DNA from: Candidatus Woesebacteria bacterium
Lineage (GTDB): Bacteria; Patescibacteriota; Microgenomatia; UBA1400; PJMF01
Assembly (NCBI GenBank): GCA_050123235.1
Contig: JASFHL010000004.1
Span: 40,558-104,557 of the forward strand
Reading direction: 5' to 3'
Length of the DNA: 64,000 nucleotides
Made by a program: the position numbers and the translations under genes. Under the pieces are notes generated by a model. That model had not been told where the DNA came from and did not search any database. It saw only the letters and a program-made list of their open reading frames with translations. Position 1 is the first letter of the stretch. Every line of letters begins with the position of its first letter. This document shows, one piece after another, positions 2,735 through 47,913 of this stretch.

Positions 2735-3712
2735 ATGAACTCAAAAATATTTATCGTTATCCCTACCATCCGCAATCTTGATTTTTTGAAAAAATGGAAG
2801 CAGCAATTCCAAAATGTCTCTATTATTATCTGTGAGGATCGTCCTCAAAAAACTATTAAAATTCCTAAAGTAGGAAAAAAAACTTATCATTATTCATGGC
2901 AAGAAATAGACAATGACTTAGGCAAAGATTCATGGATTGTACCCAGAAAAGTCTCTGGCATTCGTAATTATGGTTTTCTTAAAGCTTATCAAATGGGAGC
3001 TAAGATCATCATCACTATTGACGATGATTGTTATCCTGTTAAAGGGCACAAGTTGGTGGATCTGCACTCTCAAAATCTCCAACTTAAAGCTCCAGCAAAA
3101 TGGACCAATACTTACCCAGATGCCCGCCATCTCTATACCCGTGGCATGCCCTACCTAAATAGAGATGAACAGCCAGTGATGCTCAGTCATGGCTTATGGA
3201 CTCGTGTTTTAGATCATGATGGAGCTACTCATTTACAAAACTTAAAATTCAGAGCTAAATTTGCTGAACACTTCTTACAAATTATTCCCAGTGGGGCTTA
3301 TTTCCCAATGTGTTCTATGAATCTAGCTTTTAGAAGAGAAATAACAGCCTTGATGTATTTTCCCTTGATGGCTGAGGATAAAGAAGGTAAACAATGGGGA
3401 TATAATCGCTTTGATGATATTTGGGCAGGCATTTTTGCCAAAAAAATCATGGATCATTTAGGCTATGCTGTTGTCAATGGAGCGCCTTTTGTTAAACATA
3501 AAAAAGCATCTGATCCTTTTAAAAATCTGCAAAAAGAAGCCAAAGGTATTGAAACGAATGAGAAATTATGGAGAGCAGTAGATGAAGTAAAATTGACTAA
3601 AAAAACTACAGCAAGCTGTTATATTGAGCTGGCAAAAAAAACAAAATTCCCTAAGGAAAGATATTTTGAAAAACTAAGAGAGGCAATGCTGATTTGGGGA
3701 GAAATCTTATAA
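2735..3712 (+). CDS. reversibly glycosylated polypeptide / UDP-L-arabinopyranose mutase homolog (GT75 family)
   Basis: Near-diagnostic motif series shared with plant RGP/UAM: 'IVIPTIRNLDFL', 'DDDCY', 'FPMCSMNLAF', 'FDDIWAG', 'HKKASDPFKNLQKEAKGI' (recalled from plant RGP1, which has IVIPTIRNLDFL, DDDCF, FPMCGMNLAF, YDDMWAG, HSKASNPFVNLKKEYKGI). Confidence 0.75.
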   Translation: MNSKIFIVIPTIRNLDFLKKWKQQFQNVSIIICEDRPQKTIKIPKVGKKTYHYSWQEIDNDLGKDSWIVPRKVSGIRNYGFLKAYQMGAKIIITIDDDCYPVKGHKLVDLHSQNLQLKAPAKWTNTYPDARHLYTRGMPYLNRDEQPVMLSHGLWTRVLDHDGATHLQNLKFRAKFAEHFLQIIPSGAYFPMCSMNLAFRREITALMYFPLMAEDKEGKQWGYNRFDDIWAGIFAKKIMDHLGYAVVNGAPFVKHKKASDPFKNLQKEAKGIETNEKLWRAVDEVKLTKKTTASCYIELAKKTKFPKERYFEKLREAMLIWGEIL

Positions 3713-8731: not shown

Positions 8732-10870
8732 ATGATTAATGTTGTTGGTACTTCACCAATCCCGACCAGTTCTCAAACCCCTGCTGGACAAGCTGCCCCA
8801 CAGACTACTCCTCAAGCTGCCGCTCCAACACCTCCTCCGGCTGCAGCTCAAAAAGCTGGTGGTGCTGGAGTAACTCCTCCCCCTAGTGCTAAACCACCAG
8901 GTAATAAATCTGCTATGAGTCCTCAACTGCAAAATTTATTTAAACAGAAAAAATTATCACCCAAGATGATTATAGCTATTTTGCTATTGGTGTTATTAGT
9001 GGTGGGAGTAATCGTAGGTTTTATTCTCAGTCAACAAAAACAAGAAATTAGGCAGAAAGCTGCAGTAGGTGATTATTGCTTAACTGATGCACAATGCAAC
9101 GTTGCTGGTGGGGAATACTGTGCTCCAAATCATTACTGTGCTATCAGACCTACTGGTGGTGGCTGTCCTAATAATGACCACACTGCCACTAGGTGGATAA
9201 GATTTACCTGCCCAGATGGTTGTACCATAACCCATGAGCCAGGTGATCCCCCAGAGGGCCGATATCGCTGTTATTCAAATCGAGAAGACTTCACAACTCC
9301 AGTTTCCTTAAATGGCGAATGTGGACAAGTAGATGTTTTGGATGAGAATGGAGATTTCTGTGGCTGGACTGAATATAATTGCGATGGCCCATGTGCTGGA
9401 GATGGTGAAGGAGGCACTCCTGTTCCTGGTGCTGCTACTAGTACGCCTGCTCCAACTGGTGTAGGTGGAGTTGAACCAACTCCAATCAGCTATAGTTGTA
9501 ACAGTAGCTGTACCAATACTAGCCAATGCCAAGGAGTCAATCCAAACTATCGCTGCTACACTAGAGCTGAGGGTGAACCAAACTGGAATTTGGCTGAATC
9601 ATGGAATAGCTTCAGTATCTCAGAGATGCCTTCAGCTTGTACCTCTGTTACTGCTTCTGGCGCTTACTATACACCAACTGAATTTAGACAATCAGTTTGG
9701 TGCAATGGAGGTACTGTTTACTTCCGCACTGTTCCTTTAGGTAGCAACGGTGAACCTAATTATGGGAGTGCTGGTAGCTGGAATACTAGCAGTATTAGTG
9801 CTGAGGGTCTACCATCATCCTGTACTAGTATTACTGCCTATGATGCTTATTCTACTCCAACTGAACTTAGACAAGCTTTATGGTGTGGTACTACTGTTTA
9901 TTTCCGCACTGTACCATTAAATAGTAGTGGTGAGCCTAATTTTAGTAATGTTGGCAGCTGGAATAGTAGTAGCATTAGTGCTGAAGGTCTACCATCATCC
10001 TGTACTACTATAACTGGCTATGGAGCTTACATGACCGACTCCAACCTAAGACAATCCCTTTTATGTAACGGTAATGTGAGTTATTACCATGATGTACCAT
10101 TGAACAGTAGCGGAGAGCCTAATTTTAGTAATGTTGGCAGCTGGAATAGCATGAGTTTATCTGAATTTGGATTAGCATCATCTTGTACTACTATAAGTGC
10201 TTATGCAACAAGTAATAATGGAAATACACTTAGACAGGTATTCTGGTGCAATGGCACTAATGGTTATTTCCGTGCCGTAGGTATTGGCAGTCGCTGCAGG
10301 TTGGAAAGCAATCCTAGCTCCATGACTTGTTCTGTGGCCACAGCAGCAGCCCCAACTGCTACTCCAGAACCAGGTGTCTGCGGTTCCTCAGGTTGTAGTC
10401 TTGACAATCCATGTAGCGGTCAACTGGTTTGTATTACAGCTAATGATGGCAACAACTACTGTTCTGAAGCTGATCAAAGCGTCCGAGATGCCTGTGCTAT
10501 CAATCCAAATACAACGACTTGCTGTACAGCACCAACCAGTGCTGTTGCTACTGCTACTCCAACTGATACTGTGGTCAATACCACTATCGATTGTAATGAT
10601 GCTTGTGTGCAGAATTCAGATTGCAGTAATGTCAGTCACATCTGCTGGAATGGTCAATGTCGCTTGTCAGAAAATCCTTCTGACGAACTATGCAGATTAC
10701 CTGGCGGGGGTACCACTACTACTGTCACTTACGAAACCATCCAACAGAGACAAATTCAACCAACCCTACCTTCTCAACTACCAAGCTCTGGTCCTGCTGA
10801 TTGGTTAAAATACCTCAAGGCTGGACTAGGTGTCCTAGGCTTTGGGCTACTACTCTTCTTATTACTCTAA
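8732..10870 (+). CDS. large Cys-rich surface protein: Pro/Ala-rich N-terminal tail, signal-anchor TM with 'GFILSQQKQEIRQKA' motif, 4 x ~60-aa Cys-containing repeats, Cys-rich C-terminal module, C-terminal 'LPSSGPADWLKYLK'+TM tail
   Basis: ORF track protein; internal repeats visible at DNA and protein level (~9572-10293); many N-x-S/T sequons; codon composition raises local GC. Confidence 0.7.
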   Translation: MINVVGTSPIPTSSQTPAGQAAPQTTPQAAAPTPPPAAAQKAGGAGVTPPPSAKPPGNKSAMSPQLQNLFKQKKLSPKMIIAILLLVLLVVGVIVGFILSQQKQEIRQKAAVGDYCLTDAQCNVAGGEYCAPNHYCAIRPTGGGCPNNDHTATRWIRFTCPDGCTITHEPGDPPEGRYRCYSNREDFTTPVSLNGECGQVDVLDENGDFCGWTEYNCDGPCAGDGEGGTPVPGAATSTPAPTGVGGVEPTPISYSCNSSCTNTSQCQGVNPNYRCYTRAEGEPNWNLAESWNSFSISEMPSACTSVTASGAYYTPTEFRQSVWCNGGTVYFRTVPLGSNGEPNYGSAGSWNTSSISAEGLPSSCTSITAYDAYSTPTELRQALWCGTTVYFRTVPLNSSGEPNFSNVGSWNSSSISAEGLPSSCTTITGYGAYMTDSNLRQSLLCNGNVSYYHDVPLNSSGEPNFSNVGSWNSMSLSEFGLASSCTTISAYATSNNGNTLRQVFWCNGTNGYFRAVGIGSRCRLESNPSSMTCSVATAAAPTATPEPGVCGSSGCSLDNPCSGQLVCITANDGNNYCSEADQSVRDACAINPNTTTCCTAPTSAVATATPTDTVVNTTIDCNDACVQNSDCSNVSHICWNGQCRLSENPSDELCRLPGGGTTTTVTYETIQQRQIQPTLPSQLPSSGPADWLKYLKAGLGVLGFGLLLFLLL
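9572..10293 (+). repeat. intragenic tandem repeats: 4 x ~177-183 bp (~60 aa) units inside the 8732-10870 CDS
   Basis: Units start GEPN(W/Y/F)...SWN.SS.S..GL.SSCT.I.AY...LRQ..WC; units 3 and 4 share ~40 identical nt at their 5' ends. Confidence 0.75.
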
Positions 10871-10940
10871 TCTTAGAATAAAATCAAAGAAGGAAAAATA
10901 TAGATTGCTAGATATATATTCTGAAGAAGTGAATAAGCTA

Positions 10941-11098
10941 AAATTTACTATAAATAAATATTGCAGTGTTAAAGCGAGGTCTGGCTAAGCTTAATCTAGC
11001 ACTACATTTACTACCGAGCTTTACTGAGTGAGCTTTATATCTTAAAAATTAATAAGAGGTTGTCGCGAACGACTGCAATATTTATTTATACTAAATTT
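10941..11098 (+). repeat. MITE-like palindromic repeat, full copy A (27-bp TIR, conserved core)
   Basis: TIR aaatttactataaataaatattgcagt / actgcaatatttatttatactaaattt; core gttaaagcgaggtctggctaag...ctaccgagctttactgagtgagc...gcgaacgactg. Confidence 0.8.
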
Positions 11099-11219
11099 GG
11101 ACTGTGTTTTTCGAGCTCAGGATATTTTTTCTTCTTTGACTTTGCTCTAGAAATTGTATTATGATGATTATTAGGCAATAATTTTTGTAAAATTTTAATT
11201 TAGTGAGCAACAAAGAAAT

Positions 11220-12773
11220 ATGACTGATTCCATGAATCCTATGAATCAACAAAGCTCTAATTCAACAGCTAGCAGTAAGCCTAATTCTCAAAACCTCTTC
11301 CAAGGGATAACTAAGAAGATGGCTCAGAATACTAATGTTCAACGCGCAGCATTAAGCCAATTGGGAGCAAGTTCACTAGATAAAGCAAATCCCAACCCAT
11401 CCAGTACAAACAGCCAAAATCTATTAGACTCAATGCCTAGTTCAATAGAGGCAAAACCAAGCCAAGCTCCTATTAAAACAGCATTAAAACAACCATTGCC
11501 TAACACTCCAGCAGATCAAGGTGCAACATTAAAGCAAGCAAGCCCTCCTCCAACTCAAGAAAGTCTTACTGCTCCCAAAACAAAGTCATCAAAAAAAATA
11601 TTTTTAAGTATTGCAGTACTTTTATTTCTTGTATTTGGAGCTGGCGCTGGCTTTATTCTAAGTCAACAGTCACAAGACATTAACCGTCAAGCTACCACTC
11701 CAGAAACTGCCAAACCAACCCTAGCTGTGCTACCTGCCCCTGTTGCCACGCTTTCTGAAAAAGATCAAATTGCTAAAAAGGTACTTACTTGTTTAGACGG
11801 GATGAAGGATAACTCAGGACTTTATCCATATAAACAAAATTGTGACGAAAAAGGTAATTGTGAATCTTTACCAGATAATAATTCTGGTCCACGCCCTATT
11901 TATGCTAGATTTCATTACTACCAAAAAACTAAGGATCCTCAAGAACTTGCTATTTTTAAAAAAGATTTATCAATTAATAATACAGCTGTTTCAGGCATTC
12001 AGAATAACTTCTACAACTGTAAATTAATCGCTGAGATTCAAGCTAGCATTGATGAAATGTGGAACAACAATTTCTTGATGAAGCAAGAAAGAAATCAAGC
12101 TAGAAATATTTGCCTTCTTAGTAAAAACAACCAGCAATTAGAGCAAATCGCAGATCAAAACTTGGACAGTGAATTGGCTAAAAAACCTGATTTTGATCAA
12201 GTATATGACGATCTATCAAGTACAAAGTCAAGTAGTCAAGAAATTTTGCTCAAAACTGACCTCGCTAGTGCTAGCTATTACAGTTCTGAATATGCAGGTC
12301 GTTATTCATTACTCACCCAGAATAGAGAGACTGAATTAAAAAGAGCGATATTCTTTTACAATCAAGCCTTGCTTATGCTCTTTCAAGAAAAACAAACAGC
12401 TAATTTTAAAGATATTTGTACTTTTGGAGAAAGTTCGCTTGATCTCTACAGAGTTACTCAGGATGAGGATTATCTTAAGCTAGCCAAATATCTTTGGAGC
12501 TGGGGTGCTGATCAAACTAGCCATGACTTTTCTACCAAAACAATCTGTGCCTATTTCACTAATAGCCTTTACCAAGAAACACAAGAAGAATCTTATCAAA
12601 CAGCCAGAAGTAATTTAATTAATGATTTGATTGAAAATAATCTTGATAAAACTGGACAAATGAGTTTTGTGACTGGAGATGGCTGTTTTAATTCTGATAA
12701 AGATGCAGCTGGAAAGGTTAGTAAATCAAGTATAGATAATAGCTTATTAGTGAAAGTATTGCTAGCTGAGTAA
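11220..12773 (+). CDS. membrane-anchored secreted protein: Ser/Asn/Pro-rich N-terminal region, TM with 'GFILSQQSQDINRQA' motif, ~370-aa extracytoplasmic domain; no C-terminal anchor motif
   Basis: ORF track protein; shares N-terminal signal-anchor motif with flanking genes. Confidence 0.6.
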   Translation: MTDSMNPMNQQSSNSTASSKPNSQNLFQGITKKMAQNTNVQRAALSQLGASSLDKANPNPSSTNSQNLLDSMPSSIEAKPSQAPIKTALKQPLPNTPADQGATLKQASPPPTQESLTAPKTKSSKKIFLSIAVLLFLVFGAGAGFILSQQSQDINRQATTPETAKPTLAVLPAPVATLSEKDQIAKKVLTCLDGMKDNSGLYPYKQNCDEKGNCESLPDNNSGPRPIYARFHYYQKTKDPQELAIFKKDLSINNTAVSGIQNNFYNCKLIAEIQASIDEMWNNNFLMKQERNQARNICLLSKNNQQLEQIADQNLDSELAKKPDFDQVYDDLSSTKSSSQEILLKTDLASASYYSSEYAGRYSLLTQNRETELKRAIFFYNQALLMLFQEKQTANFKDICTFGESSLDLYRVTQDEDYLKLAKYLWSWGADQTSHDFSTKTICAYFTNSLYQETQEESYQTARSNLINDLIENNLDKTGQMSFVTGDGCFNSDKDAAGKVSKSSIDNSLLVKVLLAE

Positions 12774-12781
12774 AACAAGTA

Positions 12782-13906
12782 ATGAACATTCAAAAAAGCA
12801 GAGCCACCATTAAACGAAGCAAAAAAACTAATCTCAAATTGGTAATAAGTTTATTGTTTATTTTAATGTCAGTGACTGGTTTTTTGGCTGGACTTTATTT
12901 GACTCAGCAAAGACAAGATATTAGACAACAGGCTTATCCTGGGCAAGAATGTGACTATACTTCCCAATGTGATGGCGAAAACGAAGTTTGCAATCCTAAT
13001 ACTCATCGTTGCGAAGGTGGAGTTATCCCAAGTAGCTGTGATTGTACTGCTGCACATACTTGCACCAGTAGCAACCCTAGCTGTGGTAGCTGTGTGCGAT
13101 CGTACTGCTATATTTCACCAGTCACTGGCAACTGTGAACAATGGTGTGAGCCAGTTTGCGGTGATGTCAGTGAAGCATGTGACTTTTATTGTCTAGAATG
13201 TACCAATGCTTCTGATACTTGCGGCCCTCAGCCAACACCTGGCGGCCCGACTCCAACTCCATTCCAACCACCTACAATTACGCCTTATCACACACCGGCT
13301 GTTAGTCCTACACCGACTCCAGCTCAACCAACATCAACTCCGCCCCCAATCTCGAGCCCAACTCCTACAGTGACTGGCGCCCCTAGTTCCACTCCCACAC
13401 CGACTGCCACTTTAAGCCCAACTCCAACCGTGACTGCTAGTCCAACGCCAACTAGTCCTCCTTGGGCCTCACCAACTCCGACTAGCCCACCATGGGCATC
13501 ACCTACCCCCACCAGTCCTCCTTGGGCTTCACCAACTCCGACCTCTCCACCTTGGGTACCAACTAATACTCCAGTGCCTTGGTCAAGTCCGACCCCGATC
13601 GCTTGGACAGTACCAACTAATACTCCTGCTCCATGGGTAGTAGTACCAACTATGATTGATTGTAACTCTATCTGCTACTCTGACTCTGAATGTGCTCAAA
13701 TCGGCTTGATTTGCTATCAAGGCCGCTGCCGCTTGGCTGCTAATCCAGAAGATCAATATTGCCGTCTCCCAGCTAGTGAAGTGATGGTAGAACAACCAGT
13801 TACTCCTGAAGCATTACCAGTTGCTGGCCCAGAAGATTGGCTTAAATACCTGAAGATTGGCCTCAGTGTGCTTGGCATTGGTGCTTTACTCTTCTTGTTA
13901 ATTTAA
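12782..13906 (+). CDS. Cys-rich / Pro-Thr-rich surface protein: TM with 'GLYLTQQRQDIRQQA', Cys-rich domain, PT linker with 4x 'PTPTSPPWAS', C-terminal Cys module 'IDCNSICYSDSECAQ..CRL..NPED..CRLP', 'LPVAGPEDWLKYLK'+TM tail
   Basis: ORF track protein; C-terminal 90 aa paralogous to C-terminus of the 8732-10870 product. Confidence 0.7.
   Translation: MNIQKSRATIKRSKKTNLKLVISLLFILMSVTGFLAGLYLTQQRQDIRQQAYPGQECDYTSQCDGENEVCNPNTHRCEGGVIPSSCDCTAAHTCTSSNPSCGSCVRSYCYISPVTGNCEQWCEPVCGDVSEACDFYCLECTNASDTCGPQPTPGGPTPTPFQPPTITPYHTPAVSPTPTPAQPTSTPPPISSPTPTVTGAPSSTPTPTATLSPTPTVTASPTPTSPPWASPTPTSPPWASPTPTSPPWASPTPTSPPWVPTNTPVPWSSPTPIAWTVPTNTPAPWVVVPTMIDCNSICYSDSECAQIGLICYQGRCRLAANPEDQYCRLPASEVMVEQPVTPEALPVAGPEDWLKYLKIGLSVLGIGALLFLLI
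13441..13560 (+). repeat. intragenic tandem repeats: 4 x 30 bp (PTPTSPPWAS) inside the 12782-13906 CDS
   Basis: ccaac(g/t)cc(a/g)ac(t/c)agtcctccttgggc(c/t)tca units. Confidence 0.75.
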
Positions 13907-19296: not shown

Positions 19297-20034
19297 TCAA
19301 CCTCCAAACCTTCTCTGCCTTTTAGCAAACTCTGCCAAAGCCTTATCTAACTCATCCTTATCAAAATCTGGCATTAGAACTTCAGTGAAATAATACTCAG
19401 CATAAATACCAGACCAAGTTAAAAATCCAGACATTCTTTGCTCACCACCAGTGCGGATAATTAAATCAGGATCTGGCAAATCAGCAGTATCTAAATACTT
19501 GGCAAATAATTTTTCTGTAATTAAACGTTTTTTTTTGGAATAAGCAACCTGACTAGGTTTTAATTTAAGTTTTCCAGATTGCAGATCTTGCAATAAAGCA
19601 GCCACAGCTCTCACAATCTCATCTCTACCACCATAATTGAGAGCAAAGGTGACAGTGATCTTATTATTGTCTTTTGTTTTCTCTATCCAGTCTTTTGTTT
19701 GTCTTTGAATGTCCTCATCGAAACGACTTAAATCACCGATTGTCTTAATCCTCACTCCTTTTTCATGCAATTTTTGAGAACTTTTACTAAACGAGTCACG
19801 AAATAATTGCATCAAATAATTGATTTCTTTCTGATCGCGCTTCCAATTCTCTGTACTAAAAGCCCAAAAAGTTATATAAGGAATCTGATATTCAATGCAA
19901 GCTTCAACTAAGCTTTCAATTTTTTCATTGGCTACTAATTGATGGCCTTTAAAAATTGCCAATCCTTTCTTTCTCGCCCAACGGCGGTTGCCATCCATAA
20001 TAATGGCCAGGTGTTTAAGAGGGTTTTTTTTCAT
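19297..20034 (-). CDS. uppS: isoprenyl transferase / undecaprenyl diphosphate synthase
   Basis: 'HLAIIMDGNRRWA' and 'ITFWAFSTENWKR' cis-prenyltransferase signatures. Confidence 0.9.
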   Translation of the reverse strand: MKKNPLKHLAIIMDGNRRWARKKGLAIFKGHQLVANEKIESLVEACIEYQIPYITFWAFSTENWKRDQKEINYLMQLFRDSFSKSSQKLHEKGVRIKTIGDLSRFDEDIQRQTKDWIEKTKDNNKITVTFALNYGGRDEIVRAVAALLQDLQSGKLKLKPSQVAYSKKKRLITEKLFAKYLDTADLPDPDLIIRTGGEQRMSGFLTWSGIYAEYYFTEVLMPDFDKDELDKALAEFAKRQRRFGG

Positions 20035-20117: not shown

Positions 20118-22451
20118 CTACAGTTTCGCCCTAATTTTCATCTCAGCCTCAACCACTTCTCTGTCCTTACCATATTTAAGTCTAGACAGCTGTTTGATCA
20201 TTTCAGCCATCTTTGGATTCATTCTGGCTTTGACAGCATCCATATCTTTTTCCAAAGACATACTAAAAGCTGTCACTGGCTCATTTTTAACAATTGTTTT
20301 CACGTAAACATGATATTTTTCAATATTGATTAAATCACTTTCATTAAAAGTTGGAGAAAATTCATGTTGCAAAAAGTTGGCATCAGACACACCTACTCTA
20401 AATGAAATCATAGTACCGACGTTACCAAAAACAGCATTTTTTACTTCCTCATCAATCTGACTAATAAACTGGTTAGCGACTGTTAAGTTGAGACGATACT
20501 TTCGCGCCTCAGACAAAATTACAGCAAAATCTTCAGTGGCATAGTTTTGGAACTCGTCAACATATAAAAAGAAATCTTTACGCTGATCCATAGGAATATC
20601 TTGACGACTCATGGCAGCAGTAAGTACTTTTGGCACTAAAATTAAACCTAAAAATTTAGCATCTTCCTCACCTAGCGTACCCTTAGAGAGATTGACTAAA
20701 ATAATTTTTTCTTCATCCATGGCTTTTCTAAAATTAAAAGAGCTCTGCGTTTGACCAATAATATTACGCATGGTTTTATTGGTCACAAAACGGCCAAATT
20801 TAGACACAATATAATCCAAAACTTCTGATTTGTGAAAATCACTAGTTTGTGCCATCTGGTCTGTCCAATATCTTTTCACCACCGGGTCTTTAACAAAAGG
20901 CAACATTTCTTCCACAAATTTCTGGTCTGTCAAAACTCTTACCATTTCGATAAAAGTGGAATTCTGTTTACTCATAATGGTTAACATCGCATTACGAATA
21001 GCGTGTTCAAAACGAGGGCCAATAATACCAGTGCGATGTGGATCGTAAAGCTTGTACATCAATCCAATTACTGAGCTAACCACAAAATGTTTTTGCTCTT
21101 CAGTATCAGCTTCCATAATGTTTAAACCCATTGGGCGCTCTAAATCAGAAGGATTAAAGTAAATTACATCTTCCGCTCTTTCTGGAGGCATCAGTTGCAA
21201 AATATCTTCCACAAACTCACCATGAGGATCAATTGCACAAACACCATGGCCAGCTTCAATATCCTGAAGAATCATTTCTTTAAGAAATTCTGACTTACCT
21301 GTACCAGTTTTACCAATGATATAAGTATGCCTTCTTCTATCATCTAGACCCATATACACTTCTCTGACTTCACCACGATACATTGATCTACCCATATAAA
21401 GACCTTCATTGGGAATTTTATTGGGAGCTGGGGCGTTTTTGGCAGTCAGCCATTTGATATGATGTGTTTCAACAGTTTTATTGGGGAAGTGAAGAATAGT
21501 AGCCAATTCTTCTGTATTTAAAATAGCTGTGCCTCGATTGAAAAGAGGCATATAGCGATAAATAAAATCAATCATAAAAAGGTGTTTGATGAAAACTCTA
21601 GCCTCGGTAAAACTATTGTAAGCTGATTTAAACTGAGCAAAAGCACCTTTAATATTACTCAAATGAGAATCAGCTACTACTTCACTGGGCGAAGAAACAA
21701 CCATTCTGATTGATACTCTAAAGCCTGGTTTTTCTGCCTTGGTATTGATTGCCTCTATCTCTTTAGGGTCATGACTGTAAGTAGCTTTATCAGGGTCAGC
21801 TTCACGCTTTTTTTGTTTTTGTACGTGAGAACGACTTTTTTTCTGCCATTTGTTGCTAACCGGCTGAATTAAGATCTGCAAAATGCCACCTTCACCTTCA
21901 CCCATTTTGGAAAAAGCACTAGTAATAAGGGATAGACCATCAGTTGGCAGATCTTTGTAAGTTTTAATAGGATTGAAATGCTTATCATCCAATTTTAAAG
22001 CTGCTAACGATACTTTACCCTTTTCATTAAAAATATTAATTTCATCAACTTCTTTTATATTTGCCTGAGGATAAGCACCATGGATTTGCTTTTCTACTAA
22101 ATCTTGAATTTTACGCGCGCAACTAAGATAAAAGGCAATCTCTTCTTTAAGACCCACTATTTCAAAACTGATAATGTCATCTGTTTTGAGAAAGCTAGTC
22201 ACTCCAGTTTGTTTTAAAGACGAAAGGCCGGCAAACATTTGCTCAGCGGCATCAACCTTTATTTCATTGTCTTTGGGTACTCTCACTAAAAGAGTGACAA
22301 AGCTTAAAGCATAGTCTTCTCGTTTGCGATGTTTCAGCCACTGGATAAACATATAAGCAAAAACACCTAAGATAAGCCATGTGAGCACAATGGCTATTAA
22401 TAAAACAATTACAGCAATAAACTGGTTGATTAATAAATCAATTTTTCCCAT
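20118..22451 (-). CDS. type IV secretion system ATPase VirB4/TrbE/TraC-like with fused VirB3-like N-terminal TM segment
   Basis: N-terminal 2 TM helices, Walker A 'GKTGTGKS', Walker B-like 'LYVDEFQNY', ~780 aa typical of VirB4. Confidence 0.8.
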   Translation of the reverse strand: MGKIDLLINQFIAVIVLLIAIVLTWLILGVFAYMFIQWLKHRKREDYALSFVTLLVRVPKDNEIKVDAAEQMFAGLSSLKQTGVTSFLKTDDIISFEIVGLKEEIAFYLSCARKIQDLVEKQIHGAYPQANIKEVDEINIFNEKGKVSLAALKLDDKHFNPIKTYKDLPTDGLSLITSAFSKMGEGEGGILQILIQPVSNKWQKKSRSHVQKQKKREADPDKATYSHDPKEIEAINTKAEKPGFRVSIRMVVSSPSEVVADSHLSNIKGAFAQFKSAYNSFTEARVFIKHLFMIDFIYRYMPLFNRGTAILNTEELATILHFPNKTVETHHIKWLTAKNAPAPNKIPNEGLYMGRSMYRGEVREVYMGLDDRRRHTYIIGKTGTGKSEFLKEMILQDIEAGHGVCAIDPHGEFVEDILQLMPPERAEDVIYFNPSDLERPMGLNIMEADTEEQKHFVVSSVIGLMYKLYDPHRTGIIGPRFEHAIRNAMLTIMSKQNSTFIEMVRVLTDQKFVEEMLPFVKDPVVKRYWTDQMAQTSDFHKSEVLDYIVSKFGRFVTNKTMRNIIGQTQSSFNFRKAMDEEKIILVNLSKGTLGEEDAKFLGLILVPKVLTAAMSRQDIPMDQRKDFFLYVDEFQNYATEDFAVILSEARKYRLNLTVANQFISQIDEEVKNAVFGNVGTMISFRVGVSDANFLQHEFSPTFNESDLINIEKYHVYVKTIVKNEPVTAFSMSLEKDMDAVKARMNPKMAEMIKQLSRLKYGKDREVVEAEMKIRAKL

Positions 22452-22452
22452 A

Positions 22453-23562
22453 TTAAGCTTTTTCTTCAGCTGTGCGGTAGATTACCATACCTTTAAACAT
22501 TTTCATAATTTTTCTGCTAAATTCCACTAACCAACGCACACTAAATTTTGGACCTTTCCATTTACCCTTTTTTTCAGTTTTAGTAGTAATTGGAATGACA
22601 ATCACCGGCTTAGATGGCATTTGTGCTGGAGCAGGTAACTCTTCAGTGCCATCAGCCAAAACGACTTCCTGTGGTGGTAAAGTCGATTCATCTTTCACTT
22701 CTTGTAAAAAAGCTTCAACTTCAGGAGTAATCTCTGGGCTAGGAACTGGAGGCTCAACTTCAACTTGGCCCAGACCCGTCCCGGCATCAACTAGAGCCTG
22801 ATCTGGGCTAACAGCAGCATCAACTTTTTCTTTAACGCTACGTCCTGCATAGGCAGTGGCCAGTTGATCGTCTGCCTGATCAGCAGCTTGAGTAACTGCT
22901 GTGGGCACGGCTTGAGCGATGGCAGCAGGAATTGGGCTAGTGCTTGTTGGAGTAGTACTAGGACTGACGGCTGCCTGCGGCTGACCAGGCCTTGCCTGGG
23001 CTTGTGCTAATGGAGGGACTTTAGCAGTGTTGACTGGCGGGGTTGTAGTTGCTGCGACTTTGCTGCCTGGAGCTTGTGCTGCTGCCAAACCAGTAGTTAT
23101 TGTAACTGGGGCAGGAGTTTTAAGTTTCGCTGTCAGTTTTTTATCTGCAGCAATTTTCTGTTTTTTCTTTTGTTTCACAGTGCTGAGTAATGACTCTAGG
23201 GCATCCAGAGGAGATTGAGCTGGTTTTTGCGTAGTGCTTTGCCGAACTTTTGTTAGTGCTTGACTAGGCGAAGTAGTGATATTTGCTTTTGGACTTGCAG
23301 TTTGGATTTTATCAGCCCGCTGACTTGCTACATCATCTAGAACTTCCTCTAGAATATCTAATTTTCTGGCTGTAGAAATCTGTAGCTTAGTAGTTTGTGT
23401 ATCTTGAGTAGTTTGCTTTAGCTGAGTGGCTTGAGCAGCTGGAACTTGAGGTGAAATCGTTGCTTGCTGGTCATTAGAAGCTAAGCGAGAAGAAGAAGCT
23501 TGCCCAATATTTTGAGAAGACTGATTGTTCAGCGTTGGTTGAAATAATGATTGGTCTGTCAC
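22453..23562 (-). CDS. Pro/Ala/Thr/Gln-rich low-complexity protein, translationally coupled to VirB4 (stop/start 1 nt apart); GTG start
   Basis: ORF track; conserved-looking basic C-terminal ~50 aa. Confidence 0.5.
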   Translation of the reverse strand: MTDQSLFQPTLNNQSSQNIGQASSSRLASNDQQATISPQVPAAQATQLKQTTQDTQTTKLQISTARKLDILEEVLDDVASQRADKIQTASPKANITTSPSQALTKVRQSTTQKPAQSPLDALESLLSTVKQKKKQKIAADKKLTAKLKTPAPVTITTGLAAAQAPGSKVAATTTPPVNTAKVPPLAQAQARPGQPQAAVSPSTTPTSTSPIPAAIAQAVPTAVTQAADQADDQLATAYAGRSVKEKVDAAVSPDQALVDAGTGLGQVEVEPPVPSPEITPEVEAFLQEVKDESTLPPQEVVLADGTEELPAPAQMPSKPVIVIPITTKTEKKGKWKGPKFSVRWLVEFSRKIMKMFKGMVIYRTAEEKA

Positions 23563-23743
23563 TTATCCATGATAACATTTTAGAGGAGTGGCAGACAACG
23601 AGTTTGGAAATTGTTCCTGCATCTAGATGACTGTTTGTCTGCTCTGATACCATAGTTTGCTCCCTTTCAAATTTGTTAAAAATATTAATCTTTAGTATTT
23701 ATTATATATTATACTCAATTTTATAAAAAAATTAGCAAAATCA

Positions 23744-33434: not shown

Positions 33435-35339
33435 CTACCCTCTAATCCTCTCAATCTCCTCCGCCGTAGTCACATCTTCCCAACCTTTATCTTTTCTAAA
33501 CTTCACCAATCTTGGAAAACGCAAAGCCACGCCCGCACTGTGAGCTGGAGATTTAGTAATAGCGTCAGCTGCTATTTCCACTACAATTTTGGGAGCGACC
33601 CAGACATCAGGTTTTAAATTCTTATTTACCTGATATGCTGCTGGTTTTTTTCCCACTTTAGCTTCATCGCAACGTTTTTTCATTTGTCGCAATTGCTCAT
33701 CAGTGAGCCCAGTGCCTATTTTAGCAATGGTAGTAATTTTTTCCTCTTTATCCAAAATCCCAGCCAAAAAAGCACCCATTCCAAAACTAGCTCTTTTACC
33801 ACGACCACGATAATAACCCATCACTAGTAAATCAAGCGTATCTCGCAATTGACCGTGCTTACCTTCTTCTTCTTTAATTTTGACCCAACGCCAACCCTTT
33901 CGCCCACTACGATAAACACTGTCGATGCGCTTGATTACTGCCCCTTCTAATCCTAAAGCCAATTGCTCTTCATGAAATTTTCTAAGTTTTTCTGCATCAG
34001 TAGTTTTTAAAAATGGAGTTTGTTGTAAAACTTGATTATTTTTAAAAAGTTTTTTAAGTATTTTTTTTCTTGATAACAAATCTTTGTTCAATAAGGATTT
34101 ATCATCAACTGCCAAAACATCAAATACATAAAAACGAATTGGTAATGTTTCAGCCTTCTTACCTACATGATGCTTACGTTTACGAGTGATAGTTTCTTGA
34201 AAAGATAAAATCTTAGCTGTTTTTTTATCTATCCCTACTGCCTCAGCATCTAAAATACAGGACGAACAATTAATTTTATCCAAAATCCTGCTTAACTCCG
34301 GAAACATGTGTGAAGCATTATCCAAGTTGCGAGTAAAAACTGCCACAGACAAAGACTTAGATTGCGTGGATTTTTTTTGATCTGACTCTAATGCTGCTGC
34401 AGCTAAATTTCTCTTTTTATTAATATGGATTTGCACTCGCAAGCCATCATATTTTGGTTCAGCCAGGACTTCATGCATTTTTTCAATGATCTCAGCTGCA
34501 GAATTTAAACGCTGACAAAGTGCTGGCATCACTGGCACACCCACTTCAATTGCATAACTAGCCAAAAATTTTTCAATTTCTTTTTGAGTAGCCTTTTTGC
34601 CTAACTGAACTAAAAGATAGCCTTTAGCTAATTTACCAATATCAGCTTTTTTTTGATAAGCTTCATCTAAAACTTGATTATCAGATTTATTGCCATGTTT
34701 AGCCCATGATAAAGCATCAATCATAGTCATGGTGGAAAAACCTAAACGCAATTTGCCAATAATAATTCTAATCACAAATTTGGCGGAAATTGCATCAAGC
34801 TTAGCTAAAAGTTCCACAGTGCCTTTAATTTTTCGTTCCTGTGAGCCTGTACCAGCTTCTTTGGCAATTAAAAGCAGCTCTTGGTAAACTTGATTTAAAG
34901 AAGTCTTAGCTTTTAAAGATAATTTTGCTGATTCCACAATTTTCTCACCCACCAAACCTAAATCCCCCATTTTCTTATATTGCTTCCAGACTTTTGTTTC
35001 ATAAAAACTAAAGTCTGATTCATTAAAAAGATTAACAGTATTAGCTGAAGCAGGAGAAGCTTGTGAACGATGTTTAGCTGAATCTTTTTTGAGTCTTGCC
35101 TCTAATCTGGCTAAAACTCTAATCAACATTTTTACAGATAAATTAAATTCTAAAGACTCATACTTAGGGACTAATTTCCCTTGCATTAAATAACAAGCTG
35201 CTTCTATTTCTGACTGTTCAAGTTTCTTAAATAAGTCTGCCAATTGTACTGTCATGGTGAGGCGAGAAGAGGTTTTTTCTAGTTTTTGTAGGTAAGAGGC
35301 GAATTCTTTAAAAGTCATAGTTTCAGATATAAAGCTCAA
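33435..35339 (-). CDS. ATP-dependent DNA ligase
   Basis: Adenylation motif I 'KYDGLRVQIH', OB-fold region; size 634 aa. Confidence 0.85.
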   Translation of the reverse strand: MSFISETMTFKEFASYLQKLEKTSSRLTMTVQLADLFKKLEQSEIEAACYLMQGKLVPKYESLEFNLSVKMLIRVLARLEARLKKDSAKHRSQASPASANTVNLFNESDFSFYETKVWKQYKKMGDLGLVGEKIVESAKLSLKAKTSLNQVYQELLLIAKEAGTGSQERKIKGTVELLAKLDAISAKFVIRIIIGKLRLGFSTMTMIDALSWAKHGNKSDNQVLDEAYQKKADIGKLAKGYLLVQLGKKATQKEIEKFLASYAIEVGVPVMPALCQRLNSAAEIIEKMHEVLAEPKYDGLRVQIHINKKRNLAAAALESDQKKSTQSKSLSVAVFTRNLDNASHMFPELSRILDKINCSSCILDAEAVGIDKKTAKILSFQETITRKRKHHVGKKAETLPIRFYVFDVLAVDDKSLLNKDLLSRKKILKKLFKNNQVLQQTPFLKTTDAEKLRKFHEEQLALGLEGAVIKRIDSVYRSGRKGWRWVKIKEEEGKHGQLRDTLDLLVMGYYRGRGKRASFGMGAFLAGILDKEEKITTIAKIGTGLTDEQLRQMKKRCDEAKVGKKPAAYQVNKNLKPDVWVAPKIVVEIAADAITKSPAHSAGVALRFPRLVKFRKDKGWEDVTTAEEIERIRG

Positions 35340-37469: not shown

Positions 37470-38561
37470 TCAACTTTTTAACTGATATCTAACTCCTTTA
37501 GTCACACCCAGTTTCTCGATTACTCCTTTTTTAATCAAATCTTTCATATCTCTCAAAATGGTATCTACCGAAACATTGGGCAAAACCTTTTGCGCATCTT
37601 CTGAAGTCACCTCACCTTGGTTTTGGAAAAGTTCTAGCAAAATAATCTGTCTCTCAGATAAAGCAACCTGTTTGCCCAACTCTTTTTTCATTTTTAGATC
37701 TTTGGAAAGCTTCATTACTTGTTGTTTAATTTTCTCAATTTCAATAGCTAAACCATAACAAAAATACTCCAGCCAATAAGTCATATCTTTATTTGAATTC
37801 TGTTGCACAGATAATAAAGCCTGATAATACTGCTCCACATCATTATCAAAATATTGCTCTAATGAAAAAAACTTTTTAAAATCATAGCCTCCTGCATATA
37901 AAACTAAAGTTGCCAAAGCCCTAGCAGTACGGCCATTCCCTTCTATAAAAGGATGAATGTAGACCAATTGATAATGGGTAATTGCTGCTCGAAAAATAGG
38001 ATGAGCAGTTTTAGCGGTATCACTTTTCAACCAAGAAAAAAAATCTTTAAGTAAAAAAGGTACTTCCACTGACACTGGTGGCCTAAAAACCACCTCACCA
38101 CTGCTAGCTCCCCTGACGATCACTTGTTTTTTTCTAAAATCACCCACATCAGCATCATCTAACAATTTATACATTGTCAAGGAATGCAAAGTTTTAAGTG
38201 TTTCAATGGAAAAAAGATTGGCAAAATTGGCAATTTCCTGACTATCAATCCAGACAATCACATTACGATAATTAATTACCTCTTGGATATCACGCTCCCG
38301 GGCAATGATGCCTGTTTTTTTAATCACGTCTTTTGAGGTTTTAGCAGTATTCAAACGAACTATTTGTTTGGCCTGCTCTTCAGTAAGGTCATTGCCTTCA
38401 ATTTTAGTTCCAAAGTGAACAGTTCTGCTCATTGCATCATCACGAAACTTAGCTTCCCAGGCAGGAACCAATGGTGAATGATCAATCAAAGCCTTAGCTG
38501 ACTCAATACTAGCTACATAGGTAAGAAGATTATTGGTAATACGGAATTTAGGTTGGAACAT
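37470..38561 (-). CDS. Fic-family protein (AMPylase/Fido) with C-terminal winged-helix
   Basis: Canonical Fic motif 'HPFIEGNGRTAR'. Confidence 0.85.
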   Translation of the reverse strand: MFQPKFRITNNLLTYVASIESAKALIDHSPLVPAWEAKFRDDAMSRTVHFGTKIEGNDLTEEQAKQIVRLNTAKTSKDVIKKTGIIARERDIQEVINYRNVIVWIDSQEIANFANLFSIETLKTLHSLTMYKLLDDADVGDFRKKQVIVRGASSGEVVFRPPVSVEVPFLLKDFFSWLKSDTAKTAHPIFRAAITHYQLVYIHPFIEGNGRTARALATLVLYAGGYDFKKFFSLEQYFDNDVEQYYQALLSVQQNSNKDMTYWLEYFCYGLAIEIEKIKQQVMKLSKDLKMKKELGKQVALSERQIILLELFQNQGEVTSEDAQKVLPNVSVDTILRDMKDLIKKGVIEKLGVTKGVRYQLKS

Positions 38562-41086: not shown

Positions 41087-42238
41087 CTATTTACTTTTAT
41101 TCTCCAGTTCAATTTTTCCTAAATCTCCCACCACTTTTTCTATTCGCCCAGTCAATGAGGGATCTGTAGTGCTCACTACTGCCTGTCGCCTTCCCAACAA
41201 CCCCAAAGTCATCTCCCTACTCTCTTCATCCAATTCTGACAAAATATCATCAAGTAGCAAAACTGGTTCTTGCCTTGCCTTATTTCTAATGAAAAGCAAT
41301 TCCGCTAATTTTAGCCATAGAACTGCCATTCGCTGCTGTCCCCTAGAACCAAAACTCGCAATTGAGCGATGATCAACTTTTTTATATCCAATTTCAAAAT
41401 CATCTTTATGGGGCCCAATCAGTGTGTGCCCTGCCATGACTTCTTTATAAGCATATTGCTTTAATCTTTCTTCAGAAATTAAAGAAGGTAAATATTTAAT
41501 TGAAAAAGCTAGCGGGAAATCAACAGTTTGGATAAAGTCAATCAATCCTTGTCTCTTTTCTTGTAAAATTTGGCCATGTTTCAAAATTGTTAAATCCCAA
41601 TATTTCAAAATAGAACGATTAAACTCTCCTTCTCTGATCCCTAGTAAAAGCTTGTTTCTTTTTCTTAAAGCATTTTCATAAGTTTTCAAAGAAGCTGCAT
41701 ATTGAGGATCTAAGATTGAAAGCTGATGATCTAGGTAAGAACGTCTTCTTCCAGGAGAGCCTTCTATCAGTCTTAAATCTTCCGGACGAAAAACTACGCT
41801 ATAAAAATTGCCCAAAAATTTTTTCTTTTGCCTTCTTACGCCATTAACAGAATAAAGGGTTCTTAAAGTTCTTTTGCCTTGAACTATCCCTCTGGTAAGG
41901 ACAAGCTCTAAGTCAATTTCTTCCAAATCGTGGAACTTTGTTTCAGAATCTGCGCTAGAACTAGCAACACCTCTTTTTACAGACTCACCTCTATCCTTCC
42001 CTTCTTGCTCCACCATCACCTTCCCTTTCACCCGAGCTAATTCTTGCTCAAAGCGAATCATTTCTTCTACCTTTTGTGCGCGAAAACTAATCCCGGCAGA
42101 TAATAGATCAATAGCTTCAATAACTGAAGTCTTGCCACTGCCATTAGGACCAAGAATTAGAGTAGTTTTTTTAGAAAATTTAAAAACAGCAGTTTTGTGA
42201 TTACGAAAATTTTGTAAAGCAATTGATTGCAAGATCAT
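41087..42238 (-). CDS. recF: DNA replication and repair protein RecF
   Basis: 'LQNFRNH...LILGPNGSGKTSVIEAI' N-terminal Walker A, SMC-like C-terminal 'LLLDDILSELD'. Confidence 0.85.
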   Translation of the reverse strand: MILQSIALQNFRNHKTAVFKFSKKTTLILGPNGSGKTSVIEAIDLLSAGISFRAQKVEEMIRFEQELARVKGKVMVEQEGKDRGESVKRGVASSSADSETKFHDLEEIDLELVLTRGIVQGKRTLRTLYSVNGVRRQKKKFLGNFYSVVFRPEDLRLIEGSPGRRRSYLDHQLSILDPQYAASLKTYENALRKRNKLLLGIREGEFNRSILKYWDLTILKHGQILQEKRQGLIDFIQTVDFPLAFSIKYLPSLISEERLKQYAYKEVMAGHTLIGPHKDDFEIGYKKVDHRSIASFGSRGQQRMAVLWLKLAELLFIRNKARQEPVLLLDDILSELDEESREMTLGLLGRRQAVVSTTDPSLTGRIEKVVGDLGKIELENKSK

Positions 42239-42862: not shown

Positions 42863-43411
42863 TTATTTTTCTAATAACAAATATAACTCCCTAAATTCTT
42901 TTCTTGCCCTAAATAAATCTGACTCCACTGACTTTGTAGTTCTGCCTAGCCTTTTGGCAATCTCTTTAACTTTTTTCTTATCTACATACTTAAGTAAAAG
43001 AAGCTCTCTTTTTTCTTTCATCATCTTTTTTAGAACTTCTTTAACTTTATTTGAAGTCTCATGAGAATCATTAACCGGAGACTTCAATAATAATTCACCA
43101 AGTGGTAAAGTTCTAATCGCTTTTTTAGCATAAAGCTTACGATAATAGTCTGCAATTTCATGTCTCAAGATAGCAATCATCCAACTCTGTAAACTAGATT
43201 TTTCTTGAAAAAGAGTCGCGTTTTTCAAACAACTAATAAAGGTTTCTTGAACTAGCTCCTCCGCATCTTCCGTTGTTTTTACTTTTTTCAGAGCTATATT
43301 CAATAAAATTGGCTGATAAGACAGAAACCATTGTTTAATGGCAGCAGCATTTCCTCTTTTTATTTGGGAAATTAACTTTAAATCATTAAGCTGCTTATTT
43401 TTCTTAGACAT
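42863..43411 (-). CDS. RNA polymerase sigma factor, sigma-70 ECF subfamily
   Basis: Region 2 'LVQETFISCLKN...SWMIAILRHEIADYYR' and region 4 HTH 'VKEIAKRLGRTTKSVESDLFRARK'. Confidence 0.8.
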   Translation of the reverse strand: MSKKNKQLNDLKLISQIKRGNAAAIKQWFLSYQPILLNIALKKVKTTEDAEELVQETFISCLKNATLFQEKSSLQSWMIAILRHEIADYYRKLYAKKAIRTLPLGELLLKSPVNDSHETSNKVKEVLKKMMKEKRELLLLKYVDKKKVKEIAKRLGRTTKSVESDLFRARKEFRELYLLLEK

Positions 43412-43781: not shown

Positions 43782-43884
43782 AGTTTTGATACCCTACAGA
43801 TTTAAGTTTCGAAATTAAAAAAGAGCCTTGCCCCCTGAAAAATAAATTTTTGTTATAATAGCTTGATTGACAAACTGACTGAAG

Positions 43885-44340: not shown

Positions 44341-44344
44341 AAAC

Positions 44345-44731: not shown

Positions 44732-44764
44732 AGTTTTAAAGTTAGCGAAAAATTCAAAAAAAAT

Positions 44765-45220: not shown

Positions 45221-45224
45221 AACT

Positions 45225-45557: not shown

Positions 45558-45677
45558 CGACTCTTAAATAAAAACCAAATAATAAGAGTGAACTGATTGA
45601 CAGACGAAAAAAAATCTTGATATGATATAATTTAGAAAAAGAATTTTGATTTTAAAAACAATTAAAAAGGAGAAACA

Positions 45678-46082: not shown

Positions 46083-46100
46083 AAATTATTTAGAAATTAG

Positions 46101-47732: not shown

Positions 47733-47773
47733 ATTCTTTTATTAAGCGATGTAAGAGTAATGAAGTTAGAGTT

Positions 47774-47910: not shown

Positions 47911-47913
47911 ATT

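Follow-up and report, generated by a model that had tools for sequence, protein, structure and literature searches.

Which machine does a chromosomal ATPase serve when its gene stands apart from any recognizable secretion genes? The question is raised by a gene pair in a 64,000-nucleotide stretch of the genome of a Candidatus Woesebacteria bacterium (assembly GCA_050123235.1, contig JASFHL010000004.1, positions 40,558 to 104,557), which we refer to in its entirety as the window. The pair consists of a gene for a 777-aa ATPase and, directly upstream, a gene for a 369-aa low-complexity protein, here called the partner. An earlier note on this DNA had read the pair as a VirB3–VirB4 fusion ATPase coupled to a Pro/Ala/Thr/Gln-rich protein, isolated from the remaining genes of a dispersed type IV secretion system (T4SS). 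Our analysis shows the 777-aa protein to belong to a distinct lineage of VirB4/VirD4 ATPases, one that sides with VirD4 and the coupling proteins, and we infer, with a probability of roughly 60%, that it is an orphan coupling-type ATPase in a two-gene module that probably serves a chromosomal, non-conjugative T4SS. The two genes are as follows.

20118–22451, minus strand: ATPase gene, 777 aa, ATG start; member of a Patescibacteria-wide family combining DUF8128 with a coupling-protein-type P-loop domain
22453–23562, minus strand: partner gene as called, 369 aa, GTG start; long low-complexity stretch rich in P/A/T/Q, then a conserved block at the C-terminus

Both open reading frames (ORFs), the 1-nt interval between them, the motifs GKTGTGKS and DEFQNY, and the downstream uppS gene were recovered as previously described. 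On the minus strand, the partner gene lies 5′ of the ATPase gene, the junction reads GCT TAA T ATG with 1 nt between stop and start, and uppS follows 83 nt downstream of the ATPase gene (19297–20034, minus strand; Pfam Prenyltransf, E 1.4e-76). The 1-nt spacing, from which translational coupling had been proposed, is not conserved in relatives, where the distance between partner and ATPase genes ranges from −4 to about +135 nt. The GC content at the locus (0.36–0.40) is not atypical of the window (0.27–0.41), and scanning for promoters and terminators gave no useful signal (15 sites resembling promoters, compared to 16.8 expected; no terminator between the partner and ATPase genes).

Family Assignment of the ATPase

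In Pfam, the window ATPase matched DUF87 (E 5.6e-9), TrwB_AAD_bind (E 1e-7) and TraG-D_C (E 7e-4), with PF10412 reaching 31.6 bits against a cut-off of 20.5. The best NCBIfam model was TraD (E 1.1e-14), followed by VirD4-like CD1115 (E 1.3e-10) and VirB4_CagE (TIGR00929; E 1.8e-6), the last of which reached 26.5 bits where the cut-off is 643.1. A database entry that is 100% identical to the window product (P0001) carries the precomputed domains PF26449, PF10412 and PF01935, and PF26449 (DUF8128) is among the precomputed domains of all listed homologues; our local Pfam scan of the window protein did not report it.

Family-wide scans were performed on 34 diverse members. DUF87 was matched by all 34, TrwB_AAD_bind by 33, TraG-D_C by 32 and T4SS-DNA_transf by 16; among NCBIfam models, those for TraD matched every member and VirD4-like CD1115 matched 31 (best E ~6e-17), with VirB4-type models matching between 10 and 17 members (TIGR00929 10, at E ≤ 0.001). 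A sequence profile search of the PDB returned TrwB (8e-7), DotL (5.7e-6) and weaker HerA matches, with no VirB4 chains among its matches. Judged by these profiles, the ATPase sides with the coupling proteins TraD, VirD4 and TrwB, and not with VirB4.

Plasmid Homologues of the Family

A tblastn search against plasmids yielded 435 records, with near-full-length matches (aa 45–763) on Bacillus, Streptomyces and haloarchaeal plasmids, and with Sulfolobus plasmids also among the matches. Two B. subtilis plasmids encode homologues, of 885 and 913 aa and with the annotation “DUF87 domain-containing”, immediately upstream of a Replic_Relax relaxase gene, after which come TcpC, TcpE and a separate 847-aa AAA_10 VirB4-type ATPase. 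Examples of such relaxase-adjacent ATPases on Bacillus plasmids are WP_345805471.1 (NZ_CP154917.1) and WP_213380696.1 (NZ_OX419568.1). Aligned by hhalign, the family profile matched the relaxase-adjacent Bacillus ATPase with a probability of 100% (E 3.8e-53, 669 columns including the N-domain, 25% identity), compared to a probability of only 2.6% (E 0.017) for the AAA_10 ATPase of VirB4 type that this plasmid also encodes. This contrast within a single Bacillus plasmid therefore groups the family with proteins in the coupling position rather than with VirB4.

The Bacillus and window ATPases have in common the motifs SFEIV, PIKTY, TEELA and RKY, Walker A and B, and a DUF8128-like N-domain. A low-complexity tail is present in the Bacillus plasmid ATPase, and the annotated products lack an N-terminal transmembrane helix, unlike the window ATPase. 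The Bacillus genes also stand in a conjugation cluster (relaxase, TcpC, TcpE, VirB4-type ATPase), whereas the gene in the window is on the chromosome, without relaxase or T4SS neighbours, and is preceded by a small partner gene of its own. We know of no experimental work on these Bacillus ATPases. An assignment of the Bacillus homologues to the pLS20 family was considered and rejected, as the pLS20 gene order differs (coupling protein, gene 48; relaxase, gene 58).

Two further groups of homologues are of note. On Halorubrum salinarum plasmid pHAR01 (L089, 7854–15077), the surrounding annotation contains no T4SS or relaxase genes. Three proteins of Chloroflexi type (P0188, P0192 and P0291, the last named Anaerolineae; ~1,440–1,510 aa) have a long N-terminal region resembling tetratricopeptide repeats and no N-terminal transmembrane helix, and their C-terminal ATPase module is ~50% identical to aa 335–775 of the window protein.

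Domain Architecture and Structural Models

The features of the ATPase are listed here from its N- to its C-terminus.

22335–22436, minus strand: single N-terminal transmembrane anchor, aa ~6–39, followed by KHRKRE (Kyte–Doolittle scan)
21417–22319, minus strand: DUF8128 domain, aa ~45–345, alpha/beta, with a fold in the model like that of the VirB4 N-terminal domain
20247–21404, minus strand: P-loop ATPase domain of coupling-protein (TrwB/TraD/VirD4) type, aa ~350–735 (Pfam, NCBIfam, Foldseek)
21291–21314, minus strand: Walker A motif GKTGTGKS, aa 380–387
20712–21101, minus strand: all-helical insertion within the P-loop core, aa ~451–580
20541–20564, minus strand: Walker B region YVDEFQNY, aa 630–637 (DEFQNY, aa 632–637)
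20124–20243, minus strand: conserved C-terminal helical tail, aa 737–776, containing LSRLKYG

The full-length AlphaFold2 model (mean predicted local distance difference test, pLDDT, of 83.9) consists of a helix at residues 3–41, an alpha/beta domain at 51–320, the P-loop core at ~350–735, and C-terminal helices between 737 and 776 (737–743, 746–760 and 764–776). Two N-terminal transmembrane helices of VirB3 type had been claimed, but we find a single hydrophobic stretch (aa ~6–39) and a single modelled helix. Only ~40 residues precede the N-domain, and neither Pfam nor NCBIfam scans gave a VirB3 or PrgI match in the window ATPase. The fusion reading is thus not borne out, and a survey of 3,035 Patescibacteria genomes likewise reports no VirB3–VirB4 fusions (PMC12102498). 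In Saccharibacteria relatives, the corresponding anchor comprises ~22–23 hydrophobic residues.

The P-loop domain appears catalytically intact, judged by its conserved motifs: G380, G383, G385 and K386 of Walker A, and Y630, D632, E633 and F634 of the Walker B region, are invariant in our alignment A1, and R650, K651 and Q661 are conserved and intact, as are the Walker A and B residues. In the C-terminal tail, L755, S756, G761 and R774 are invariant in a second alignment (A2). The insertion in the P-loop core is built of eight helices between strands E429–432 and E583–587 (DSSP of the model), and its position suggests that it corresponds to the all-alpha domain of coupling proteins.

Compared against the PDB with Foldseek, the full-length model ranked R388 TrwK/VirB4 first (E 1.4e-15, ~870 aligned columns, template modelling score, TM, of ~0.3) and HerA second (E 1.4e-12), with TrwB at E 1.2e-11 (target TM 0.54–0.63, 14–16% identity). 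When the N-domain alone was modelled (aa 42–345; pLDDT 88.6, predicted TM score 0.88), the top 14 matches were all R388 TrwK/VirB4 chains (E 3.3e-7 to 4.4e-5, query TM ~0.5), and the next were unrelated oxidases (E 3e-4). In these models, therefore, DUF8128 is a VirB4-N-domain-like fold joined to a P-loop domain whose sequence resembles that of coupling proteins, and it is because of this fold that the ATPase had been taken for a VirB4. The combination is a genuine trait of the lineage, and the Bacillus plasmid homologues have it as well. That assignment to VirB4/TraC holds for the fold of the N-domain and for the VirB4/VirD4 branch as a whole, but not for the sequence, which is of the coupling-protein (VirD4/TraD/TrwB) type.

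The protein can accordingly be set beside two groups of known ATPases. With VirB4, TrwK and TraC it shares the two-domain layout, the N-domain fold, the overall size and the position of Walker A, but it differs from them in the preference of its profile for coupling proteins and in that no VirB3 partner or fusion was found. With TrwB (R388), TraD, VirD4, DotL and Cagbeta it shares an N-terminal membrane anchor and, judging by position, probably also the helical domain inserted in the P-loop domain, but it differs from them in its extra 300-aa VirB4-like N-domain, in having one transmembrane helix and not two, and in being a core chromosomal gene without a relaxase partner.

Distribution, Synteny and Conservation

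A word-index search returned 7,894 ATPase homologues, the top 120 clusters of which are all 76–83% identical to the window protein, and an exhaustive search gave 5,863 clusters (at 50% identity) with E < 1e-30. The family was present in all major lineages of Patescibacteria that were sampled: genome scans gave loci in Microgenomates, Dojkabacteria, WWE3, Saccharibacteria, Berkelbacteria, Parcubacteria and Peribacteria, including one on a complete Woesebacteria chromosome, and a neighbour-joining tree of 83 ATPases broadly follows taxonomy. Close relatives keep the order GH3 / LGT / DUF192 / partner / ATPase / MacB-type ATP-binding cassette (ABC) transporter. When the window is compared with the close relatives sharing this synteny, the ATPase is 78–83% identical, compared to 68–73% for the ABC ATPase and 57–59% for the MacB permease, and, in the same genomes, 42% for peptidyl-tRNA hydrolase (Pth), 37–42% for LGT and 33–47% for GH3. 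The family is thus core to the Patescibacteria, vertically inherited and syntenic, and under unusually strong purifying selection.

No T4SS neighbours (VirB3/PrgI, TrsD, VirB6, VirB8) were recognized in the related loci, nor was linkage to a relaxase or a conjugative T4SS found in the window or in the Patescibacteria loci. DUF192 was rejected as a part of the module, since it is a neighbour in close relatives only, and so were VirB2-like pilins, which are neighbours only in L001/L002. There (L001/L002, 1–752 and adjoining genes), on the long contig most closely related to the window, the ATPase gene is ~5 kb away from a pair of genes with a T4SS_pilin domain, one of them encoding 1,076 aa, an arrangement that is not seen in the other loci.

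The Partner Protein

Three features describe the partner and the uncertainty at its 5′ end.

22456–22800, minus strand: conserved C-terminal block of the partner, aa ~255–369 (alignments)
22483–22539, minus strand: basic amphipathic helix candidate VRWLVEFSRKIMKMFKGMV, aa 342–360 (hydrophobic moment)
23474–23653, minus strand: 59-aa ORF with ATG start and AAAGGGAG-N7 in front, whose frame differs from that of the partner ORF, the 5′ end of which it overlaps

The Pro/Ala/Thr/Gln-rich character and basic C-terminus attributed to the partner are evident from its composition: 44% of the 369 residues are P, A, T or Q, and the last 52 aa contain 14 K/R compared to 4 D/E. No transmembrane segment was found in this 369-aa product. 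The C-terminal block has the pattern ...PE(I/L)xPEVExFL...EIV(I/V)ADG...PV(I/V)V(I/L)PIT...S(V/I)RWLVE(W/F)SxKxMKMF, and within it VRWLVEFSRKIMKMFKGMV has the highest helical hydrophobic moment of the whole partner (0.71, at a mean hydrophobicity of ~0). In BLASTP comparisons, identities of 46–50% to the partners at loci L001, L004, L005 and L006, and of 36% to that at L007, extend over 110–166 aa only. A whole-sequence search gave only seven homologues, including P0122–P0127, a small number that probably reflects a candidate list filled with low-complexity words. With a hidden Markov model (HMM) of the C-terminal block, in turn, a partner of the same type was found directly upstream of the ATPase in 14 entries including the window (E ≤ 0.01); this model extended detection within Microgenomates only, where the motif was also seen by eye in further loci.

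The GTG start of the partner, taken over from the earlier note, is doubtful because the 59-aa ORF, with its ATG preceded by AAAGGGAG-N7, covers the same 5′ stretch out of frame with the partner ORF; AAAGGGAG is a strong Shine–Dalgarno-like sequence, 7 nt upstream of this ATG. A basic N-terminal motif found in partner homologues is absent from the GTG-started 369-aa product. The 59-aa ORF may thus reflect a frameshift, an assembly error or a mis-set start that hides the true N-terminus of the partner, or it may be a leader ORF.

Across the family, a co-oriented small ORF lies directly upstream of the ATPase in most loci, and its product falls into one of four class-specific types by C-terminal motif.

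Type A, Microgenomates: ...PV(I/V)V(I/L)PIT...S(V/I)RWLVE(W/F)SxKxMKMF
Type B, Saccharibacteria: DLIEKEWVxKAKxIV..T.DDPY...KADYxKKRY
Type C, Parcubacteria: KGVxxAVxVAKxMNDPYILDxFHD
Type D, Parcubacteria: ...LIxxWLKxIPGVNxFFLEQEAKIK

The partners share their position and a common design, in which a low-complexity N-terminal part is followed by a short conserved C-terminal part. Conservation of the low-complexity gene, a point raised in the earlier note, therefore holds for the upstream ORF in most loci, but for the sequence within classes only. In all 16 loci of the Saccharibacteria clade, a type B partner of ~110–190 aa lies directly upstream of an ATPase of 812–1556 aa (most 935–1108 aa).

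We note that several Saccharibacteria ATPases (L053, L054, L058, L074, L076 and L085; P0146 and P0153) have P/A/S/Q-rich C-terminal tails of up to ~1,200 aa, with a conserved SFLDEWLAKRK and a terminal (I/V)Y(I/V)D..GN(L/V). In Microgenomates, the low-complexity tract is found in the partner instead of in an ATPase tail.

Published Surveys and the Southlakia Pair

In the survey of 3,035 Patescibacteria genomes mentioned above, a dedicated VirB4 clade was found in 2,417, and 5,713 VirD4-profile homologues of type IV coupling proteins (“T4CP homologues”) were counted in 2,918 genomes, with only 148 near virB4 (PMC12102498). The same work locates T4SS genes near dnaA/dnaN, finds VirB2 arrays to be abundant in Microgenomatia, and proposes that the Patescibacteria T4SS derives from monoderm conjugative systems. 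In the portion of its Table S3 drawn on here, Woesebacteria have one T4CP-profile hit, far from virB4, a separate VirB4 (PF19044) that adjoins TrsD, and pilin arrays 5–13 genes from TrsD and VirB4. Neither by locus tag nor by accession were window homologues matched in that portion of the table, and the window ATPase is most simply read as the single T4CP-profile hit of Woesebacteria there.

Transposon sequencing (Tn-seq) of Southlakia epibionticum identified an essential T4SS cluster without a recognizable coupling protein (PMC10633639). In the same data set, SEML1_0141, a 139-aa hypothetical protein (Tn-seq calls GD/ES/ES), is followed 12 nt downstream by SEML1_0142, a 1019-aa “TraM recognition domain-containing” protein with a P-loop domain at 381–800 (ES/ES/ES) that is listed as core and as enriched in Patescibacteria. 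Also listed are SEML1_0293, of 921 aa, with a strong PF10412 match and no small upstream gene (NE/NE/NE), the VirB4 SEML1_0008 (GD/ES/ES), and SEML1_0096, an essential canonical FtsK. In three Saccharibacteria ATPases that we scanned, the Pfam signal is weak, as it is in SEML1_0142, and those named by NCBI are called “ATP-binding protein”. Gene layout, protein sizes, domain boundaries and names, as opposed to sequence, make SEML1_0141/0142 the probable counterpart of the window pair.

The main text of the Tn-seq study discusses neither SEML1_0141 nor SEML1_0142 (PMC10633639), and in the genome survey it is the non-essential homologue alone that is given as “the” t4cp of ML1 (PMC12102498). In neither account of T4CP homologues is DUF8128, the VirB4-like N-domain or the conserved upstream partner described, and a search of the literature for “DUF8128”, or for “Candidate Phyla Radiation” together with “DUF87”, found nothing. 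The family is thus already catalogued, as DUF8128, and has been counted among the “T4CP homologues”, but is uncharacterized; to our knowledge, and in the literature searched, there is no account of its VirB4-like N-domain, of the conserved slot for a partner gene, or of a link between the family and the essential pair SEML1_0141/0142.

Secretion Genes and Replication Origin in the Window

The isolation of the ATPase from other T4SS genes, as noted previously, is upheld by Pfam scans of ~44 window ORFs, among which there was no match to VirB4, VirB6, VirB8, TrsD, PrgI, a relaxase or an integrase; this negative does not extend to five larger ORFs that fell in no Pfam family. That no VirD4 gene lies adjacent, which had been part of the same observation, is moot, as the ATPase is itself VirD4-like. 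The pilin array already pointed out is confirmed.

43434–46716, plus strand: array of VirB2-like pilin paralogues, eight ORFs (Pfam PF18895, T4SS_pilin)

Six of the eight ORFs score above the PF18895 cut-off of 26.6 bits, and those at 43434–43781 and 43885–44340 score below it. The array adjoins a divergent gene for a sigma factor of the extracytoplasmic function (ECF) type (42863–43411, minus strand) and a RecF/SMC_N-like gene (41087–42238).

The window abuts the replication origin, because yidC, dnaN and dnaA are present at 58383–63550 and the GC skew changes sign at ~62 kb. VirB4 and TrsD may lie just beyond the end of the window, as Microgenomatia are reported to have VirB4 and TrsD near dnaA/dnaN. 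The dispersed T4SS layout that had been suggested for this genome matches the published picture of T4SS genes in Patescibacteria (PMC12102498).

Proposed Role of the Module

In the role that we consider most probable, the ATPase would form a membrane-bound ring at the cytoplasmic face, like TrwB, VirD4 and VirB4, and would use ATP to feed or energize the transport of macromolecules across the cytoplasmic membrane. It would then supply the chromosomal T4SS and VirB2-like pilus system of Patescibacteria, which has no relaxase, with the coupling-type ATPase that is otherwise missing from it. The VirB4-like N-domain would dock the ATPase to the membrane platform, and the partner would be a disordered, P/A/T/Q-rich protein that acts as an adaptor or regulator particular to each class, with its basic amphipathic helix fixing it to the membrane or to the ATPase. 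Small adaptors or regulators are frequent companions of coupling proteins, examples being CagZ for Cagbeta and DotM/N/IcmSW for DotL. A coupling role in the T4SS fits because the T4SS and the probable Southlakia counterpart of the pair are both essential.

Several observations weigh against this role. The ATPase has one transmembrane helix, and a 300-aa DUF8128 N-domain before its P-loop, whereas canonical coupling proteins lack such a domain and usually have two transmembrane helices. Its scores with NCBIfam coupling-protein models fall far below the curated cut-offs (TIGR03743, 53.8 against 366; NF045973, 40.7 against 250; TIGR03754, 33.9 against 647). The ATPase gene does not co-localize with T4SS genes: the pilin array is 21 kb away, no VirB4, VirB6 or TrsD was recognized in the window, and across classes the partner gene is the sole conserved neighbour. 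Comparison of the four partner types by hhalign gave no mutual homology (probability below 1%), and a common partner function is therefore an assumption. In Southlakia, it is the non-essential SEML1_0293 that shares the NCBI name and Pfam pattern of the window protein. Finally, T4CP-profile hits occur in more genomes than VirB4 (2,918 compared to 2,417; PMC12102498), an excess that could mean that the ATPase works without a T4SS, or that genomes are incomplete.

This last point leads to the main alternative, possible if rather doubtful: that ring and partner form a T4SS-independent translocase, which would by itself carry nucleic acid of the host, DNA or RNA, or a different polymer across the membrane, in the manner of the archaeal Ced/Ted import ATPases or of the FtsK-like TraB. 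Such a translocase would be in keeping with the near-universality of the family, with its conservation beyond that of housekeeping enzymes, with the ATPase never being clustered with T4SS genes in the loci examined, and with the larger number of genomes with T4CP-profile hits than with VirB4. In addition, comEC is dispensable in Southlakia, the route of uptake of host RNA or nucleotides is unresolved, and the family gives weak matches to CedD (30 of 34 members) and CedB (7 of 34). These matches, however, are confined to the P-loop region. Moreover, no channel component is encoded with the ATPase, a pore is hardly to be expected from one transmembrane helix per subunit, and the nearest homologues with informative context are coupling-position proteins on conjugative plasmids with full T4SS modules.

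A second alternative, the VirB3–VirB4 fusion with which this analysis began, would cast the protein as the VirB4 that powers a minimal and dispersed T4SS, in which the pilins encoded at 43–47 kb are assembled. The layout is indeed VirB4-like (~780 aa, an N-domain, Walker A near residue 380), TrwK/VirB4 ranks first in the full-length Foldseek comparison (E 1.4e-15), the top 14 matches of the N-domain are all VirB4 chains, and TIGR00929 aligns over the whole P-loop domain (E 1.8e-6). We nevertheless regard this reading as improbable: sequence profiles favour coupling proteins, as does the Bacillus comparison (hhalign E of 3.8e-53 against 0.017), the TIGR00929 score is 26.5 bits against 643, the protein has one transmembrane helix and no VirB3/PrgI match, and, in the published data, no fusions were found in 3,035 genomes and VirB4 of Woesebacteria is separate and beside TrsD in the portion of Table S3 drawn on here (PMC12102498).

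That the ATPase resembles FtsK or HerA in function, pumping DNA during chromosome segregation or repair, is very improbable. In favour of it, the best Pfam match is to the central domain of HerA (DUF87), and HerA reached E 1.4e-12 in Foldseek. Grouping with FtsK or HerA, which the earlier note had named as an outcome that would speak against its T4SS assignment, is nonetheless not what the profiles indicate: FtsK_SpoIIIE scores 16.4 bits for the window ATPase, under its cut-off of 24, HerA family models match at most 8 of the 34 members, and no match to a HAS-barrel or to the FtsK alpha and gamma domains was found in the ATPase. The ATPase was also rejected as an FtsK replacement, since Southlakia keeps the essential canonical FtsK SEML1_0096.

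That the gene is a remnant of an integrated conjugative element, decaying or domesticated and with no current core role, is scarcely credible: homologues do occur on plasmids of Firmicutes, Actinobacteria and archaea, and an origin of the T4SS in monoderm conjugative systems has been proposed (PMC12102498), but the reading frame and catalytic motifs are intact, identity is 78–83% across divergent genomes, synteny is conserved, the tree broadly follows taxonomy, GC is not atypical, and no relaxase or integrase is found among the scanned genes within ~10 kb of the ATPase.

Other Genes in the Window

Five of the larger ORFs scanned gave no Pfam family and are hence uncharacterized. Three consecutive large ORFs without a Pfam match (712, 517 and 374 aa) occupy 8732–13906 on the plus strand, where GC is raised to 0.39–0.41, compared to 0.27–0.36 in most of the window. 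The gene at 2735–3712 (plus strand), among glycosyltransferase genes, matches PF03214, “reversibly glycosylated polypeptide” (E 3.8e-56), a family known mainly from plants, and that at 54357–57284 (minus strand) encodes a 975-aa protein with DUF4012 as its sole match (E 1.8e-24). Further genes on the minus strand encode an ATP-dependent DNA ligase with all three domains (33435–35339), a Fic/DOC protein with a helix-turn-helix domain (37470–38561), and a kinase and decarboxylase of the mevalonate pathway (46749–48921).

Implications

The label of a VirB3–VirB4 fusion was attractive but wrong, and its correction leaves a module that is notable for being phylum-wide, membrane-anchored and more conserved than the housekeeping enzymes adjoining it, and for having a probable counterpart that is essential in the sole Tn-seq data set. 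The joining of a VirB4-like N-domain to a coupling-type ATPase, the partner gene dedicated to it and its kinship to relaxase-adjacent ATPases of Gram-positive plasmids provide concrete hypotheses for Southlakia genetics and for structural work. Patescibacteria, which depend on host cells, account for a large part of bacterial diversity; their means of extracting macromolecules and the cargo of their essential T4SS are still unknown. We put forward, as a tentative and still speculative suggestion, that the ATPase and its small disordered partner are an essential, phylum-wide machine overlooked by T4SS surveys, be it the coupling or energizing ATPase of the T4SS or a stand-alone importer of host nucleic acid. 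If this is true, SEML1_0141/0142 would offer a genetically tractable entry point to it.

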